Under the pieces are notes generated by a model that ran no database searches, had not been told where the DNA came from, and saw only the letters and a program-made list of their open reading frames with translations. A program made the translations under genes and the position numbers. From Candidatus Sediminicultor quintus (GTDB lineage Bacteria; Atribacterota; Phoenicimicrobiia; Phoenicimicrobiales; Phoenicimicrobiaceae), in NCBI GenBank assembly GCA_001773955.1, contig MEYH01000022.1:3606-67605 (forward strand): DNA of 64,000 bases, written 5' to 3'. The number at the start of each line of letters is the position of its first letter. Position 1 is the first letter of the stretch. Of this stretch, positions 41,688 to 63,736 are shown piece after piece.

Positions 41688-42986
41688 TTATGAATTTCTT
41701 ATCTCTATCGAACGGGCATGAGCCTCCAGACCTTCTAACCTGGCTAAACTTACTATTTTTTGGCTATCCTGTCCCAATTTTTCTTTATCATAAAAAATTA
41801 TACTACTCATTTTAGTAAAGTTATTTACCGATAAGGGCGAAAAACATCTTGCTCCGCCGGAAGTAGGTATAATATGGTTGGGCCCTGCCCAATAATCCCC
41901 TAATGGTTCGGGAGCAAATGCTCCCATAAATATTGCCCCGGCATTTTTTATTCCTCCCAACATTTCCCAGGGATTTTCTATCTGTAACTCTAAATGTTCG
42001 GGAGCAAAACAATTGATAAATTTTAAAATCATCGTTACGTCTTCGGCAATTATTAACTTCCCATTTTTTTCTAAAGATTCCTGAATGATTTCTTTTCTCA
42101 CTGAATTTTTTAATTCACCTTCAATTTCCTTTTTTACTTTTTCAACTAATAATGCGGAAGTGGTAATTAAAATTGCCGAAGCCTTTGCATCATGTTCAGC
42201 TTGAGAGAGCAAATCACATGCTAAATATCGGGGGTTAGCCTTTTCATCAGCCCAGATAAGGATTTCACTCGGCCCCGCCAACATGTCTATATCCACTTCT
42301 CCAAATACCATCTTTTTTGACAGGGTTACATAGATGTTTCCCGGACCCACAATTTTATCCACTTTTTTTATTGTTTCTGTTCCGTAAGCCAAAGCAGCTA
42401 TAGCTTGAGCTCCACCTACCTTGTAGATTTCCGTTATGCCCAATTCCCGGGCGGTGGATAATAAATAAGGGTTGATTTTACCTTCGGAAGAGGGAGGGGT
42501 TACTACAATAATCTCTTTAACCCCCGCAATCATTGCCGGTATTGCTGCCATAATAAGAGACGAAGGATAAACAGCCTGTCCCCCCGGAACATACAGTCCA
42601 ACTCTTTCTATGGGATTCACCAACTGTCCTAAAATGATCCCTTTTTCTTCAGTGGTAACCCAGGAATTTTTTTTCTGATGTAAATGATATTTTTCAATTT
42701 TCTTTATTGCCTCTTTTATTATTTCTAATAAATCTGCACTTACTTCCTGGTCGGCACTATCATATTCTTCTTTGCCTATCAGCATTTCGGAAGGACTTAG
42801 CTTGACACCATCATACTTTTCAGTATATTCAAGAAGGGCTTTATCTCCTTCCTTTTTCACCCTGGATATAATTTCACTAACCTTCTTTTCAATATCATGA
42901 ATTAAGCTGTCTTCGGAAAACCTCTGTCGGCAGATCTGTTCTATTTTTTCTTCGTTTTCCTTGTTTAAAAAAATAGTTTTTATCAC
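41688..42986 (-). CDS. hisD: Histidinol dehydrogenase HisD
   Basis: 432 aa with HisD motifs. Confidence 0.9.
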   Translation of the reverse strand: MIKTIFLNKENEEKIEQICRQRFSEDSLIHDIEKKVSEIISRVKKEGDKALLEYTEKYDGVKLSPSEMLIGKEEYDSADQEVSADLLEIIKEAIKKIEKYHLHQKKNSWVTTEEKGIILGQLVNPIERVGLYVPGGQAVYPSSLIMAAIPAMIAGVKEIIVVTPPSSEGKINPYLLSTARELGITEIYKVGGAQAIAALAYGTETIKKVDKIVGPGNIYVTLSKKMVFGEVDIDMLAGPSEILIWADEKANPRYLACDLLSQAEHDAKASAILITTSALLVEKVKKEIEGELKNSVRKEIIQESLEKNGKLIIAEDVTMILKFINCFAPEHLELQIENPWEMLGGIKNAGAIFMGAFAPEPLGDYWAGPNHIIPTSGGARCFSPLSVNNFTKMSSIIFYDKEKLGQDSQKIVSLARLEGLEAHARSIEIRNS

Positions 42987-53915: not shown

Positions 53916-53938
53916 TATGGGGTCAGGTCTTGGAATAT
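53916..53938. repeat. Solo copy of the MITE terminal repeat
   Basis: TATGGGGTCAGGTCTTGGAATAT, 22 of 23 identical to 46357-46379. It overlaps the last codons and the stop of the 53923-54834 gene. Confidence 0.5.
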
Positions 53939-54834
53939 GACTTTTCCTCTTCCTCCTTATCTCTCAGCCAGATATTTGCTGCCTCAGGACTCTCCTGCCT
54001 TGGTAATAACCTAATGGCATTGTTTGGGCATTTCGCCCTACACAAGCCACACCCGAAACACCTGGTGGGATCGATATACACCTTAGAAAGCGCAGATGAG
54101 TAAAACTGAGCCCCGAACTGACATTGACTCATACAAGATTTGCACCCTGCACAGAGTTCCAAATCTATCTGGCAGACATACTCTGCCCGGAAGAAGTGAG
54201 GAGCACCTCGCTTCTCAATATACCCCTTGTAGGCTCCACAATCACGATCACAATTACACATACCTACAACATAAGGGGTTACTCCTGTCCAAATGCTATG
54301 TATCAGCCCTTCCTTATCATATTGGCGAAAAATTCTCTTGGTCTCCTCCTGGTCAAGCACCTCCAGGGATGAAGCGGCATCCGGAAACTTACCCAATATA
54401 TTCCATTTATCCATCCCTAGACCGAAACAGTATCGTTTATCTGTCTTTCCTGTGGTAATGAACCGGCATCCACAAGGCATTCTCGTAATAGAGTCTATCA
54501 TATCTATCACTCTTTCAACATCCTCGATGGGCAGTACTTGACCGAAATGTTCGACCTTCCGATGTGCCACCAGCTCATCTTCACTGGGTTGAACCTCAGG
54601 AAGCTCAGTTGATGACGGAACATCTGGTAATCCCTTTTGTGTCTTGGACACCCTGCCAATGGCCGGTATCACAAAAGTCTCCCAGAAGCAATTGTTCCAC
54701 TCGAAACGCGTTGTAGCTCCAACGATGCCCTTTTGAGCGGCAGAAAGCTCCTCATGGAGTAATTCTTCGGCGTAATTCTTCATTTGGAGATACCATTTCT
54801 TCCCCTCGCCGTGTTCAGTACAAAACTCGCACAT
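53923..54834 (-). CDS. Fe-S cluster-binding protein with two 4Fe-4S ferredoxin motifs; paralog of 15082-16356
   Basis: CAGCKSCMSQC and CFGCGLCRAKCP motifs plus a CGCRF…CNCDRDC block; the C-terminal 6 aa and stop are encoded within the repeat. Confidence 0.6.
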   Translation of the reverse strand: MCEFCTEHGEGKKWYLQMKNYAEELLHEELSAAQKGIVGATTRFEWNNCFWETFVIPAIGRVSKTQKGLPDVPSSTELPEVQPSEDELVAHRKVEHFGQVLPIEDVERVIDMIDSITRMPCGCRFITTGKTDKRYCFGLGMDKWNILGKFPDAASSLEVLDQEETKRIFRQYDKEGLIHSIWTGVTPYVVGMCNCDRDCGAYKGYIEKRGAPHFFRAEYVCQIDLELCAGCKSCMSQCQFGAQFYSSALSKVYIDPTRCFGCGLCRAKCPNNAIRLLPRQESPEAANIWLRDKEEEEKSYSKT

Positions 54835-55129
54835 TTTGCCCTCCTTCCGTTACAAAAGTAAGCGAATAGATTAAGCCCCTCGATCCTCCAATATAGGTTT
54901 TCTCAAAGTTTTCTCCTCTTCGCTTTTCTGCAACATTAAGTAATTTTATATATAATATTTTACGAAAATAAGAAATATTTTACTCCTTAACATTAAATTC
55001 TTTCTTATTATTTTATTAAATCAAAACCAAAACATAATTTTTGATTTATTTTAATGCTTCTGTAACTTTCTTCTGAAAATCTTCTTAATTTAAATACACA
55101 TCCTATTTTTTCTATTGTTTAGCGTTCCA

Positions 55130-55650
55130 TTTTACAAGGTCTTCCGTTAGGAAGTCTATCTATGACAATACCTGAAGTCCCAACCCTCTTGATAAGAAAC
55201 TACTCAGCTTCTATAGGTTGTCACGGTAGGACAGCCAGTTACCTGACTGCCCCCGCACAAATCCCAGCGTGCGGAATTACCGCACTGGGCTCTTCAGAAA
55301 TACTCGCTTCCATAGCTGATCCGAATCCCTATAAGCCATCAGTCATCCTCTCTTTTCATCCCTGTAGACTTACCTTATAGTAAGTGAGCTTATAGGGTCT
55401 CCCAAGTTCTTTATATCTCTCTACAGACCTGCCATGTGCCAAGACCTCGACAGACCCTCTTTAGAATCTCGCCATATGCGATTCTTTTGTGTAGGCTTCC
55501 GTTACGGAAACGACGCCGCTGTCTTGCATTAATCTTTATTTACGAGGCTGTATAGTTCACTTTAAGGAAGTACGGCCTTCCTTATGGCCTATCTGTTTCC
55601 CGGTGTACGCTCCTGCCTGCAGCAGACAGGTCATCTAATGGTTACCCATT
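55130..55650 (+). ncRNA. Candidate large structured non-coding RNA of unknown class
   Basis: About 520-nt ORF-free core with clearly higher GC than its flanks and many local and long-range complementary segments (for example cccagcgtgcgg/ccgcactggg and ccctataagc/gcttataggg). The strand is uncertain; a + strand terminator lies at 56005-56030. Confidence 0.3.
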
Positions 55651-55949
55651 TTGATGCAACACTCCATTAGACTATTAATTAAGAATATATTAAAATAAAT
55701 TAAAGTTTATTAAATTAAATCAGGTACCGAATAAAGAAGGCTGAATAAGTCTATGAACACTCAAAAGAAAAACTTATATTCCGAATAAGACGAAAGCCTT
55801 CTTGATGATTAAAGCTAAATAGTGCTTTCGTCGCTAAAAACGACTATTAATGGAGTAAGCTCATATCATCGTTTATTCGGCCAAGGAAAGGAATATTTAT
55901 TATGAAAAAGAACTTGTTTTTTAGATGTTGCTTACATAATATTCTTAAT

Positions 55950-56297
55950 TTAAAAAATATTTAGCTGGTACATATTCTCTTTATGGTAAAACCATTTGGC
56001 CATTACCACCTTCAAAGAAGGTGGTTTTTTAAGGTTAAATAAATCGTCACTGACTTCTTGACTGACCTTACCCCATTCCTCTTTACCTACCAGTATTTCT
56101 GAGGAATTCAGTCTTGCTCTATCATACTTTTTCGTAAACTCAAGAAGGGCGTTGTCTCCTTCCTTTTTCACTTTTAATATAATTTCTCTTACCTTATCTT
56201 TAATATCCTCTGACAGGTTATCTTCAGAATACTTATGTCTGCAGACCTCTTTTATTTTTTCCTTATTTTCTCTGTTTAAAAAAATGGTCTCTATCAA
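55950..56297 (-). pseudogene. Diverged duplicate of the hisD 5' end (N-terminal fragment of about 90 aa)
   Basis: MIETIFLNRENKEKIKEVCRHKYSEDNLSEDIKDKVREIILKVKKEGDNALLEFTKKYD… is about 60% identical to HisD residues 1-90 and then diverges. The upstream 35 bp also resemble the hisD leader. Confidence 0.6.
56005..56030 (+). terminator. Rho-independent terminator on the + strand
   Basis: ACCACCTTC-AAA-GAAGGTGGT followed by TTTTTT; embedded in the hisD-like fragment. Confidence 0.5.
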
Positions 56298-56447
56298 CTT
56301 TTAATCCATCCCTTCTCTTGCAATATTTCAGATATTTTTTTAGAAATTTATTTTAGACAATCATTCTATTTATCAGTCTCTTTCTCGCATTGGCGCTTTA
56401 TGATATAATCGTTTAATGAAAAAATTAATGAGTTGTTGTAAGGAGTA

Positions 56448-59400
56448 ATGATGGTTACCAGAAAAAATTTCGGGCGTACCTGGTGGGGAAATGCCTGGAT
56501 AGAAGCAATGGCACGAATTGATCACGATACCAACCGCTTGCCCAGAGGCAGAAGTTATGCCAACGGTGGTAGAGTACAAGAGATTCAGATTTGTAACGGT
56601 ATTGTGGAAGCAAAAGTAAAAGGTAGGCAACGAAAACCTTATCAAGTAACAATTTACTTGCAAAAATTTACCCCGGAACAACTTTCGAAAATACAATCCT
56701 GTATCGCCGAAGATCCAGCCTTGGCCTCCGAATTGGCTTTGGGAAAACTACCGGAAGAGATGCTGAATCGGCTTGCTCAGGAAAATATCTCTCTTTTACC
56801 GACTACCTGGCAAGAGCTTAACGCAAACTGCTCCTGTCCCGACTGGGCCAACCCCTGCAAGCACCTCGCTGCAGTCTACTACCTTATTGCCAATGAAGTG
56901 GATAAAAATCCCTTTATTTTGTTTCACCTACGAGGTGTGGAAACCAACACACTAATGCAGGCCGCCGGTTTTGTAGAACCTGTCACGGCTGCTGAAAACG
57001 AAGAAACTTTTATCCCTTATATACAGATAAAAGTTCCCATCAAAGACAATAAAAAGGATAATAAAGTCGAACCCGAGTTTTCTTCAATTTTAAGTTCCCT
57101 TTCTCAAGAAAAGGATAGTGCTGCCATTTTTGCCCTGCTGGAAGAATCTCCTTTGTTTTACCCCGAGGCTAATTTTAAACAGATCCTCTTTAAAGCTTAT
57201 CATAATATAACAAACCATATCAAACAATTACAGCTACTGGAAGAGTTCCCCAGTTGGTCAAAGTCAAATATTTGCCTGCTCGATCCGGGAATTAAGGTCT
57301 ACCACCCCTTGTCCGAAACATCTTTTTTTATTTTTCTTCCCAAAAAAATCTCGGAAGGTTTGGAAGGTCCATCAAAAATAATTACCGTTCCCGAAGACCT
57401 GGGCGGGAAGCTAATTCTAAAAAAGAAAAAGGGAATTCTATTGCCTGCAGCAACCTTAATTGATTACTTTATAAGACTACCACTGCAGCTTTCTTCTGAA
57501 GAGAGCTCCCCTGAGGTAAGATTAATCAGCATCGCGACCACTATAGCCTTAGCCCTGGCCAGGGAATCAGCATTTGTGCCACAGATAAGGAATGACCAAA
57601 AAGGTAACTTTTTTGTGCGTTATATGCCCCTTAACCAGCTGAAAGTCACTGAAAAAGCCCTGGACTTTCTGGCCGGCCTCATTCCGGTAACCTTTCTTTA
57701 TCGAAAAGAAGAAAAATCTCTTCTTATAAGGCGAGATGCCGCCAGGTCTCTTTTATCACTTATTCTGACCTATATTGTGCATCGCTTTGCCGGGATCAAA
57801 GAAAGTAATAAGCTTTGTAACACCTTTTTTAATGGGGACTATTACCCGGTTCAGGACTTTACCGAAAGGCAGACCGCCAGGGTAATTACCAACTGGCTAA
57901 GCATATTAAACTTAAGTGGGAATGAAATTTCCCCGGCAATTAGGATAGAAATACCTCAGGGTAAAAAAACTCTTTTTCAGTTACAGGTGGAGGTAGAAAA
58001 CAAAAAAGATCCCCTCTCCCCACTTCTCCCTTTAGCGGATGTATTTACGACAAAAAAAACTATTTTCTCTCATCCCATTGAAATGGTGCGCTTTACCCTA
58101 GCCCACCAAATTTCTACAGCCTCTACTTATTTCCCGCCTCTAAAAACGGTTCTCAGCAGTAAAGGAAAGAAGTCACCCCTTATCGACCCTCTGGAAGTGG
58201 CCAGATTTATCCAAAATGGCCAACATATCTTTAATATGCTTGGCATACGCGTGATTGTGCCCAAAGAATTAAAAATACTTAGCTCACCTCAGCTGTCTCT
58301 GGCAGCTAAGCTTAAAGCCAGCGAGAAGCAAAACATTTCTTATTTTAACCTGGAAGAAATGTTAACCTTCTCCTGGGAAGTGGCTCTGGGTGATCTTAAA
58401 CTAACGCGAAAAGAATTTCTTCAGCTGGTCAAATCGGCAGCAGGGGTAGTAAAATTCAAAGAGCACTATCTGTTACTTCAGCCTGAAGAAGTAGCGCAAA
58501 TAGTTAAAAAGCTAAACCAACCCTTGCCTAAACTATCTTCTGCAGAAATAATGCAAGCATCACTAACCGGACAAACCGCCAATATTTTTTTTCATTCTGA
58601 TGATAAACTCCGCAAAATGATAGATGAGCTTACCAAGTTCAAAGTGGTCAAACTCCCAAAAAGCCTAAAAGCAGTGCTTCGACCCTACCAGAAGCGAGGT
58701 TTTCAGTGGCTCTACTCTAACGCTGACAAAGGGCTCGGTTCCTGCCTGGCCGATGATATGGGATTGGGTAAAACCATCCAGGCGATTACCCTTATTTTAA
58801 AACTGAAAGAAGAGAAAAAACTGGACCATCCTGCACTGGTAATTTGCCCGACTACCCTGGTCGGTAACTGGCTGAAGGAATGCAACAAATTTGCCCCATC
58901 CTTAAAAGCATTGACATATCACGGACCAGAACGTCAGCTTATTACCTCTCTACCTGTGCGTGTACGCACCTGTCTGCGTGCGTACACGCACAGGCAGGCG
59001 CAGACAGGTCACGCCGATTTAGTCATTACCACATATGGGCTATTGCGCCGTGAAGTTGAAAAATTTAAAAAAAGAAACTGGGATCTTATTATTATTGATG
59101 AAGCTCAAAATATAAAAAATGCAGATAGTAAGCAGACCAAAGCGGTTAAAGCATTAAAAGCCAGGGGCACTATCGCCTTAAGCGGAACGCCGGTAGAAAA
59201 TCGCCTGAGTGAGCTCTGGAGTATTTTTGATTATTTAATCCCAGACTACCTGGGAACCCGGCAGAATTTTATGCGTCGTTTTGCTATGCCCATCGAAAAG
59301 TACCGTGACCAGAGAAAAATCGCCTTATTACAAAAAGCCACCGCTCCTTTTATTATGCGCCGCATGAAGACAGATCGTTCCATCATACAGGATTTACCGG

Positions 59401-62769: not shown

Positions 62770-62952
62770 AAATGCTATATACCCCTGCTATTTTAAAATC
62801 CGTATATCTATAATACGACATTTCTACCTCAATATCAGGTATTTTACACTTTAAGACACTCCTCAGATTTTATAGGTTGTTCGCTAAAAGTTACCGAATT
62901 ATTGACCTGATACACCGTCCATATTCATCTAAATTAAAAGCATATAAACTTT

Positions 62953-63736
62953 CTATATCTCAGTTATTTCTTCATACAGTTCTGGTAAGCAATTTTGACG
63001 TAATCTAAACTTAGTTCCGTGATTATGTCCTGTCCTCGCATCAAAATCCACTAAAGCTTTGTTCTCTTCTAAGGCTTTGATAAATATGTCTATACTAAAT
63101 TTTTGTAACATTAAAATTTTATTATAATGAAAATACTCTTTACCATCTTTTTTCTTGACTTGAGCTTGAACATAAAAACAATTAATCAGCTTTGTGCCTG
63201 CTTTGTGAAATAGATCATCAAAACCCCAATAAGGCTGCGGATTTATTTCATCTAAACCAATTCTTTTATTTACTGATGCAACCCAATCTGAATGATATTC
63301 TGCAACGGTATTTGAGTTAAAAGAAACTAACATTTTTCTTTCACTCCTATTAATAACTATTTTAAAACCTCTGTCACTTCTATTCTTACCACCAATAGTT
63401 TGTCGAAAACTCATTTCATTTTTAGGATAACGAGTCTCAGCTTCTTTATGAGGACAGCCATATTTTGAGTAAAAATATTCGGGGTACAAATTTTAAGGCT
63501 CTTGGGGAAGGTTCCATATGAAATAAAGTTGTTGAAGATGAAGTATTTGCTCTTTGAGTTTTTAATTTCCATTCAGCAGCATTTGGAATTGGTAAATTAT
63601 TTTCTTTAATCCCAAGTAAATCTTCTAAAGTATTTCCAATGCCTCCTACGTTTCCTGGTCTTGTATTTTTTATCCAACCCATCTCTTTTATTTTTCTTAA
63701 TTCTAGAATTAATTGATCCTTAGTAAATATTTCCAT
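62953..63736 (-). pseudogene. Frameshifted MutH/Sau3AI-family (MvaI/BcnI-like) type II restriction endonuclease gene
   Basis: Two overlapping ORFs in different frames (63446-63736 and 62953-63489). The N-terminal part carries the MutH-like motif GNVGGIGNTLEDLLGIKENN…AEWKLK. Confidence 0.5.

Follow-up and report, generated by a model that had tools for sequence, protein, structure and literature searches.

Identification of a Group II Intron Remnant

The window analysed here, i.e., a stretch of 64,000 nucleotides from the contig MEYH01000022.1 of Candidatus Sediminicultor quintus, very probably harbors (with a probability that we put at about 0.88) a bacterial group II intron retroelement reduced to a non-functional and non-autonomous remnant, located at positions 55665..55220 of the minus strand. 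The remnant lies upstream of an iron-sulfur (Fe-S) gene, in a region which a preliminary description had presented as a candidate large structured RNA read from the plus strand between positions 55130 and 55950. The element is of a known kind, and its RNA is not a new large RNA; the host repeat in which it is embedded, an intergenic repeat of ~245 bp referred to as Y-W-X, is a more unusual object than the intron relic itself. As far as annotation is concerned, an apparent orphan large structured RNA turns out to be a decayed retroelement on the other strand, and a false lead is removed.

Between the start of the Fe-S gene (54834) and the end of the hisD-like open reading frame (ORF; 55950), there are ~1.1 kb without a credible ORF, as originally noticed, the sole ORF of at least 40 aa in this gap being a 72-aa frame (55162-55380, plus strand) that runs antisense through domains 5 and 6 (D5/D6) of the intron. 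The GC content is 0.41-0.49 across 55100-55700 vs. 0.20-0.34 on either side, and the hairpins and long-range complementary segments that had been named are present in the sequence; both the GC content and the helices would be the legacy of the parent ribozyme. That the region comes from a large structured RNA is borne out by its homology to group II ribozymes, while its strand and its limits have to be revised. For 55215-55700, the folding energy is -154.3 kcal/mol on the minus strand (z -3.96), a value equalled by none of 100 shuffles, vs. -122.2 kcal/mol (z -2.0) on the plus strand. This better fold and the minus-strand Rfam matches place the structured RNA on the minus strand, where its true limits are 55665..55220, followed by the repeat half down to 55071; the AT-rich sequence at 55666-56004 is a separate piece.

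Rfam 15 (4227 families) was scanned against the whole window at gathering thresholds and, with permissive (E-value) scoring, against positions 54700-56500 and the whole window. At gathering thresholds, only a transfer RNA (tRNA) was found in the window. With permissive scoring, RF02005 (group II D1-D4-6) matched 55665..55435 on the minus strand (42.4 bits, E 3e-10, a match also recovered in the window-wide scan), and RF00029 (group II D5-D6) matched 55294..55220 on the same strand (35.5 bits, E 7.7e-5), covering all 77 model positions; with this scoring, both across 54700-56500 and window-wide, the group II models were the only ones with meaningful E-values. The preliminary description had reported no domain V signature, whereas the hairpin that it quoted, CCCAGCGTGCGG-aatta-CCGCACTGGG, corresponds to the antisense of domain V (RF00029). 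Its suggestion of an OLE-, ROOL- or GOLLD-type non-coding RNA (ncRNA) does not hold, since none of these families is matched in Rfam at gathering or permissive thresholds and the sequence is 93% identical to a group II intron that encodes a reverse transcriptase (RT); its fallback, an RNA derived from a mobile element, was correct, in that the sequence derives from a group II intron retroelement. The comparison with Rfam ended in a match to a known family, by permissive scoring only.

Homologues with compensatory base pairs were retrieved from species-representative genomes and from metagenomes. A metagenome contig (L126) contains a complete intron of 2689 nt, bounded as ...TTTTAACGGAA/GAGCGCCAAG...CCGTGAC/AACCTATAGG (here and below, a slash between sequences marks a junction). 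The ORFs in its domain 4 (D4) match the Pfam families RVT_1 and GIIM, with a reading frame that is frameshifted in this copy; since ~30 aa follow the GIIM match, the intron-encoded protein (IEP) has no endonuclease (En) domain. A shorter relative (L158) is a 640-nt ORF-less derivative with complete ends. Both score well above the RF02005 gathering threshold of 49 bits (129 bits for L126 and 122 bits for L158). The window copy is 93% identical to the full-length intron over 327 nt (55663..55314) and 90% identical to the ORF-less one over 528 nt, through D5, D6 and the adjoining repeat half X. In both cases, the homology starts at intron nucleotide 75 (window position 55664) and skips D4, so that 143 nt of L158 and the whole L126 ORF are without counterpart in the window copy. 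In an alignment of D1-D3 from the window copy, L126, L158 and the more distant relatives L052 and L077, 16 of the 79 predicted pairs show compensatory double changes, which fall across two sub-lineages, and the window copy keeps the pairs.

Anatomy of the Remnant

Homology, boundaries, deletions, target site and complementarity of the exon-binding and intron-binding sites (EBS1-IBS1) are shown by the sequence comparisons. The order of the domains on the minus strand is canonical, with D1-D3 (55665..55328) followed by D5-D6 (55292..55220). The long-range helix preceding the D4 deletion is probably D3, and the homologous helix in L052 and L077 keeps its pairing via compensatory changes. The D5 stem also occurs in L126 and, according to a D5-stem scan of species-representative genomes, in at least 120 genomic stretches; in the lineage of the window intron, the triad G of D5 is opposite A and not U. 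As for D6 (CCUACCGUGAC), the branch-point A lies 7 nt before the final C at 55220, and the intron ends with GAC (3' splice site). The BLAST homology to ~30 unrelated introns stops at 55220/55221, thus marking the intron end. The coordinates of these and of the other features are reported in Table 1.

On the 5' side, the 5' splice site and intron nucleotides 1-74 are without counterpart: the alignment of intron nucleotides 1-90 with 56060..55640 is no better than that of shuffled sequences, and no GUGYG or GAGCG with matching downstream sequence exists upstream of the truncated intron. Moreover, no homologue of an IEP or RT was found in the window by tblastn with the L126 IEP (best E 0.9). Since the window copy has no 5' splice site, no exon bearing an IBS, no D4a protein-binding arm and no RT within the window, it should be able neither to splice nor to move, and its sequence points to an inert relic as the most likely state. 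Among the group II introns of bacteria, truncated or inactivated copies form the majority, and ORF-less copies coexist with related introns that carry the ORF (PMC4424553).

Table 1. Features of the intron remnant, of its host repeat and of their surroundings in the window
Feature	Position	Strand	Evidence or remarks
Group II intron remnant, intron nt ~75 to 3' end, D4 and ORF deleted	55220..55665	minus	Rfam, homology, fold
19-nt insertion CCUGUCUGCUGCAGGCAGG relative to L126 and L158	55612..55630	minus	pairwise and multiple alignments
D1 EBS1 hairpin UCGU-UUCCGUA-ACGG; EBS1 UUCCGU at 55509..55504	55499..55513	minus	aligns to RF02005 loop hairpin
Long-range helix CCCUAUAAGC...GCUUAUAGGG around a small hairpin	55328..55397	minus	found in window, L126, L158
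D4 deletion join ...GGAUCAGCUAU/GGAAGCGAG...	55303..55322, join ~55315/55314	minus	alignment to L126 (2689 nt) and L158 (640 nt)
Domain V GAGCCCAGUGCGG-UAAUU-CCGCACGCUGGGAUU, AGC triad and AC bulge	55260..55292	minus	RF00029 alignment
Domain VI, bulged branch-point A at 55227	55220..55256	minus	RF00029 alignment
X, 3' half of the ~245-bp repeat, 3' exon of the intron	55071..55219	minus	nhmmer 116 bits, E 3.5e-35
Second repeat copy, intron-free, W/X contiguous ...TTTTAGCGAAC/AACCTATAAAATCTGAGGAG	62802..62954	minus	nhmmer 82 bits, E 8.4e-25
AT-rich block abutting the truncated intron upstream, in lieu of W and intron nt 1-74	55654..55770	minus	116/117 identical to L155 end (L155:4568-4684)
AT-rich spacer with inverted repeats AAGAAGGCT/AGCCTTCTT and CCGAATAA/TTATTCGG; outside intron	55771..56004
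Terminator-like hairpin and T-run	56005-56025	plus	scan: 9-bp stem, 5 GC pairs, tail TTTTTTAAGG
Fe-S gene	53923-54834	minus	co-oriented with intron remnant, directly downstream
hisD-like ORF	55950-56297	minus
hisD N-terminal fragment, ~90 aa, pseudogene	56030..56297	minus	Pfam Histidinol_dh positions 6-66 of 411
SWIM-SNF2 helicase, 1226 aa	56448-60128	plus
MvaI/BcnI-type restriction endonuclease, C-terminal fragment	62953-63489	minus

Target Site and EBS1

The 3' end of the intron (GAC, 55220) abuts X. The target site of the intron family lies between ...TTTTAGCGGAA and AACCTATAGG... inside the ~245-bp intergenic repeat. An X-only pattern scan of metagenomes retrieved at least 120 stretches, with 127 X copies among the matches listed; 109 of these are empty, the conserved W being directly ahead of X (...CAATAATTCGGTAACTTTTAGCGGAA), and the other 18 are occupied, the intron end ...CCTACCGTGAC being found at the identical junction (...CCGYGAC/AACC in all 18). 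Filled and empty sites (18/127 sampled copies occupied) form a natural series that fixes the boundaries of the intron exactly.

The EBS1 loop of the window copy, UUCCGU, is complementary to ACGGAA or GCGGAA, the final six bases of W, and pairs at 6/6 positions with the last six bases of the 5' exon in 58 of the 109 empty sites among the matches listed. In L126 and L158, the loop is UUUCGC, which pairs with GCGGAA, and in L052 the loop UAACG pairs with its own exon end, CGUUG. EBS1 thus varies between lineages in step with their own exons, and this supports the EBS1 assignment. A candidate EBS2, UAAAGU, comes from a by-eye reading of the sequences. At the window locus itself, the cognate 5' exon (W) is not detectable either with nhmmer or by local alignments, which are no better than those of shuffles.

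The plus-strand 9-mer CTTCCGTTA occurs at 54844-54852, 55141-55149 and 55496-55504, i.e., just ahead of the Fe-S start codon, within X and in the EBS1 hairpin, respectively; its minus strand, UAACGGAAG, contains the IBS1-like ACGGAA. The two occurrences outside the EBS1 hairpin may be due to chance.

Relatives of the Intron

The relatives of the window intron take various forms. Apart from the complete intron and the 640-nt derivative, they include a 198-nt mini-derivative (L208), further internally deleted or 5'-truncated copies (L120, L094 and L035) and more distant ORF-less relatives with GUGCG ends, found in metagenome-assembled genomes (MAGs) of Anaerolineales (L052 and L077). A few of the D5-stem relatives extend past 55220 into the next ~140 nt, that is, into X (L113, L037, L120, L035 and L094, including MAGs of Atribacterota and Cloacimonadota). 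The occurrence of the repeat and of the intron in named MAGs and single-amplified genomes (L035 and L120) suggests that the window belongs to Atribacterota. As for group II intron biology, these data disclose a lineage with an atypical GAGCG 5' end, an En-less IEP and a specific home in a short promoter-like intergenic repeat, together with numerous derivatives, found in uncultured sediment bacteria, that have internal deletions and 5' truncations.

The four copies of this family whose 5' end is intact (L126, L158, L208 and L120) all start with GAGCG and not with the canonical GUGYG; this terminus, together with a dedicated, abundant and orientation-locked target repeat, is worth a separate look. 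In L052 (170-1500) and in L077 (reverse strand, 3600-1900), an ORF-less RF02005-type intron is directly followed by an RF02003-type (D1D4-4) segment and a second D5-D6; judging from their sequences, the two arrangements are putative tandem or nested ORF-less introns. A BLAST search against plasmids gave matches to D5-D6 of unrelated introns alone, and literature searches combining Atribacter with group II introns or intergenic repeats retrieved nothing relevant.

The Host Repeat Y-W-X

The Y-W-X repeat is present in at least 120 metagenome stretches and is very common among related bacteria of sediments. Along its consensus, a left hairpin (AAAATAGGAAGACACATCCCATTTT) comes first and is followed by a sigma-70-like TTAGAC-17-TAAATT, then by W, the intron site, X and a right hairpin, so that the repeat ends with near-identical inverted hairpin sequences, AAAATAGGAAGACACATCCCATTTT and AAAATAGGATGTGTTCCTATTTT. 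The consensus of X harbors GAGGAG and a 22-codon ORF, MVEALGIIIDRRPKGRPRKMES, with an AT-hook-like GRP motif. According to an nhmmer profile built from 98 copies, two copies of the repeat exist in the window (Table 1). The X of the intron copy is 87% identical to the family consensus and retains, at 55187..55119, a degenerate remnant of the 22-codon small ORF (sORF), which has lost its start codon, and, at 55110..55096, half of the terminal hairpin.

The repeat precedes diverse single genes, sometimes each gene in a row (as in L225), and is co-oriented with the downstream gene in 85/89 cases and with the upstream one in 76/81 (~95%). No recurrent transposase, integrase or recombinase was found among the 507 neighbouring ORFs of 120 repeat copies, the neighbour genes being extremely diverse, and the repeat pattern had no match in viral contigs. 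No covariation was detected in the W-X transcript (RNAalifold -2.85 kcal/mol, with 0 compensatory pairs in 50 copies). As for coding selection on the 22-aa sORF, no excess of third-position variation was observed, and the synonymous fraction is 0.19 vs. the expected 0.21; for a repeat family, such a test carries no information. Neither a family in Rfam nor a description in the literature was found for the Y-W-X repeat. The possibility that the repeat is an integron attC site was considered and rejected, as it has no attC-like organisation and the intron is co-oriented with the genes.

The repeat may be a mobile promoter, a miniature inverted-repeat transposable element (MITE)-like element or a cassette boundary. 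A more ambitious proposal, which we regard as speculative and rather unlikely, is that sediment bacteria of the Atribacterota type have in Y-W-X a gene-cassette or mobile-promoter system not described so far, with a dedicated lineage of En-less GAGCG introns and 198-640-nt deletion derivatives possibly aiding cassette shuffling. The repeat marks units that differ between related genomes; a cassette or mobile-promoter system, if true, would be a more significant result than the intron.

History of the Locus and of the AT-Rich Flank

A syntenic locus (L225) carries X, the spacer and the Fe-S gene, matching window positions 53957-55205 at 91%, with no intron and with a flavodoxin-like gene upstream of X. 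It follows that either the intron was inserted into the repeat copy preceding the Fe-S gene, or it was lost from L225. In the same contig (7500-12074), a repeat copy lies ahead of each of three consecutive genes, and both flanks of the shared unit differ from those of the window. The unit made up of X, spacer and Fe-S gene has the appearance of a movable cassette with a single gene and with the repeat as its boundary.

The AT-rich block that directly adjoins the truncated intron is not significantly similar either to the consensus of Y-W or to nucleotides 1-74 of the intron; a W-like TTATTCGGTACC at ~55738 and a GAGUG at 55762 were judged to be due to chance. The block is almost identical to the end of another contig (L155), and the adjoining part of intron D1 is 88% identical to L155 over 107 alignable nt, L155 diverging past the EBS1 hairpin. 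The AT-rich spacer that follows has no homologue among 240 loci, save L155, and no Rfam match. The sequence 55666-56040 folds with z -3.7 (minus strand) and -2.65 (plus strand), as expected of palindromic DNA. The recurrence of CCGAATAA, to which the preliminary description had drawn attention, is real as a local cluster, three of the four window copies falling within 55727-55880, whereas it disappears at the scale of the window, where four copies vs. 2.9 expected are not above chance. A 12-bp perfect inverted repeat, AATTAAGAATAT/ATATTCTTAATT, is located in the same AT-rich stretch (55666-56004), at 55677-55688 and 55939-55950. The copies of CCGAATAA/TTATTCGG and this inverted repeat could be the trace of another small palindromic element.

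The order of events and the retrohoming mechanism that we infer are as follows. The parent lineage would be that of the 2.7-kb intron of L126, whose D4 encodes an RT-maturase without endonuclease domain. The parent would splice from RNA and retrohome into one specific W/X site inside the Y-W-X repeat, whose recognition would include the pairing of the D1 EBS1 loop with the last six bases of the 5' exon. Since the En domain is absent, the parent probably primes from replication intermediates, as suggested by established group II biology, and on the same basis the ORF-less derivatives would be mobilised in trans (PMC4424553, and the papers on RmInt1 cited below). An intron would have been inserted into the repeat copy ahead of the Fe-S gene; this copy would have later lost D4 and the ORF, and unrelated AT-rich DNA would have taken the place of its nucleotides 1-74 and of the repeat's 5' half. 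What remains is D1 from nucleotide 75, D2-D3, D5, D6 and the exact 3' junction.

Alternative Explanations

Some observations weigh against the interpretation of the element as a non-functional and non-autonomous remnant. Both Rfam scores of the window copy are under the gathering thresholds (42.4 vs. 49 for RF02005 and 35.5 vs. 40 for RF00029), so that its group II membership rests on the homology to relatives that pass them; the curated thresholds miss the window copy because it is truncated and because its lineage scores low on the D5-D6 model. In addition, L155 has the same truncation junction (flank 99%, D1 part 88%), and hence the truncated form is no one-off local accident; the mosaic of L155 may go back to recombination or conversion between copies of the intron, or to the insertion of another element into it. 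Lastly, an RT-encoding copy acting in trans may exist in the genome outside the visible 64 kb. It might also be imagined that the element is a still-functional ORF-less intron, spliced via a trans-acting maturase from a transcript running from the hisD fragment to the Fe-S gene, with a divergent 5' end in the AT-rich block. The integrity of D5, D6, the EBS1 hairpin and most D1-D3 helices is in keeping with this idea, as are the existence of ORF-less relatives with complete ends (the 640-nt L158), the ability of related IEPs to splice ORF-less bacterial introns in trans (PMC4424553) and the presence of a GAGUG pentamer at 55762..55758. However, the 5' exon ahead of this pentamer (UUCUUUU) mismatches EBS1, intron nucleotides 1-74 have no detectable counterpart, D4 is wholly deleted, including the arm normally binding the IEP, and no IEP is encoded in the window; moreover, X alone stands ahead of the Fe-S gene of L225, where the intron can therefore be dispensed with. 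A functional intron is therefore improbable. The same syntenic cassette, having X and no intron, speaks against the domestication of the intron remnant and X into a regulatory RNA for the Fe-S gene or into its long 5' leader, an idea that we consider very improbable; the W-X transcript is without covariation and the promoter-bearing Y-W half is undetectable at the window copy, even though the remnant is co-oriented with the Fe-S gene and immediately upstream of it, X copies are co-oriented with the downstream gene in 85/89 cases, and elsewhere the upstream part of the repeat is promoter-like.

The remaining alternatives deny that the element is an ordinary intron. The conserved X found directly after D5-D6 in at least 18 loci, together with a locus (L120) in which a D5 is found 1.9 kb downstream of X, past two intervening genes, might recall a circularly permuted or otherwise rearranged group II ribozyme, in which X would be a downstream D1-like segment and back-splicing would generate a circle. 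The order of D1-D3 and D5-D6 in the window is nevertheless canonical, X has no similarity to intron nucleotides 1-74 and, among the matches listed, it is fused to W without any intron in 109 copies; as for L120, the D5 downstream of X is part of another copy of the intron, which has a W of its own and, after it, GAGCGCC as its start. Circular permutation was rejected once X proved to be the target repeat, and its likelihood is negligible. Hardly any credit can be given either to a novel large ncRNA of the plus strand, be it similar to OLE, ROOL or GOLLD or of a new type, with the terminator at 56005-56025 as its end. The region is indeed long, ORF-free, GC-elevated and rich in helices, with a terminator-like hairpin downstream on the plus strand; yet its helices belong to a known ribozyme fold, the OLE, ROOL and GOLLD families are unmatched in Rfam at any threshold, the plus-strand fold is marginally better than shuffles (z -2.0), and the minus-strand intron and the minus-strand repeat account for every conserved piece.

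Comparison with Known Systems

Promoter-carrying intergenic repeats and MITEs, such as the Correia elements of Neisseria, resemble the host repeat only, which is likewise short, abundant and intergenic, with inverted hairpin-like ends and a sigma-70-like -35/-10 pair; unlike them, the host repeat has the orientation of both neighbours in 95% of cases, an unusual trait for a MITE, and a parent transposase was not found. In the circularly permuted group II ribozymes, reportedly described by Roth, Weinberg, Breaker and co-workers in iScience in 2021, D5-D6 are said to lie upstream of D1-D3. The window element shares with them the presence of group II domains without an RT in non-coding DNA and a conserved sequence after D5-D6, and differs from them in its canonical domain order and in that the sequence following D6 is the target repeat and not D1.

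The remnant and its family resemble in several respects RmInt1 of Sinorhizobium meliloti, whose IEP has RT and maturase domains and no En domain. RmInt1 homes site-specifically into a repeated genomic element, ISRm2011-2 (PMC1802570), and genomes contain many fragmented, inactivated copies (PMC4496777, PMC4181065); site-specific homing into a repeated element and many broken copies are also features of the family of the window intron. In this case, however, the target is a ~245-bp promoter-like intergenic repeat without transposase rather than an insertion sequence, the family starts with GAGCG and not with GUGYG, its RNA matches RF02005, and the window copy is only a remnant. The ORF-less introns and intron fragments reviewed by Zimmerly and Semper (2015, PMC4424553) are similar in having a D4 without ORF and a related ORF-carrying copy (here L126) from the same environment or lineage. 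The ORF-less introns described mostly retain their two splice sites and the ability to splice, whereas the 5' splice site and 74 nt of D1 are missing from the window copy, which is thus a fragment and not a splicing-only intron. Lastly, the attC-associated introns (IIC-attC, and IIB in halophile integrons, PMC7923331) are also lineages dedicated to a short repeat between diverse single-gene cassettes; the repeat described here is, by contrast, sequence-conserved, ~245 bp long, promoter-like and co-oriented with the genes, the intron is oriented as the cassettes are, and neither an R''/L''/L'/R' organisation nor an integrase was seen.

Surroundings of the Remnant

The hisD-like fragment upstream of the AT-rich spacer had been correctly recognised: the Pfam Histidinol_dh match covers its residues 27-86, and its identity to the complete resident hisD (41688-42986, minus strand), which belongs to the his operon, is 59% over residues 1-91 of the latter. 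This degree of identity suggests a foreign or old pseudogene piece and not a recent local duplicate. As for other proteins of the window, an exact-match look-up of the Fe-S protein retrieved no record, and two further proteins were retrieved from anonymous metagenome assemblies only. The plus-strand terminator noticed in the preliminary description was also found by scanning, and sits where the hisD-like homology ends; it cannot belong to the intron RNA, since the latter is on the minus strand. A 20-codon ORF, MKKNLFFRCCLHNILNLKNI, is located at 55903-55965 on the plus strand, preceded by AAGGAAAGG and followed by this terminator-like hairpin, and possibly arose by chance in AT-rich DNA. As a whole, the neighbourhood looks like a variable, defence-like one, with which the helicase, the endonuclease fragment and the second, empty repeat copy are consistent.

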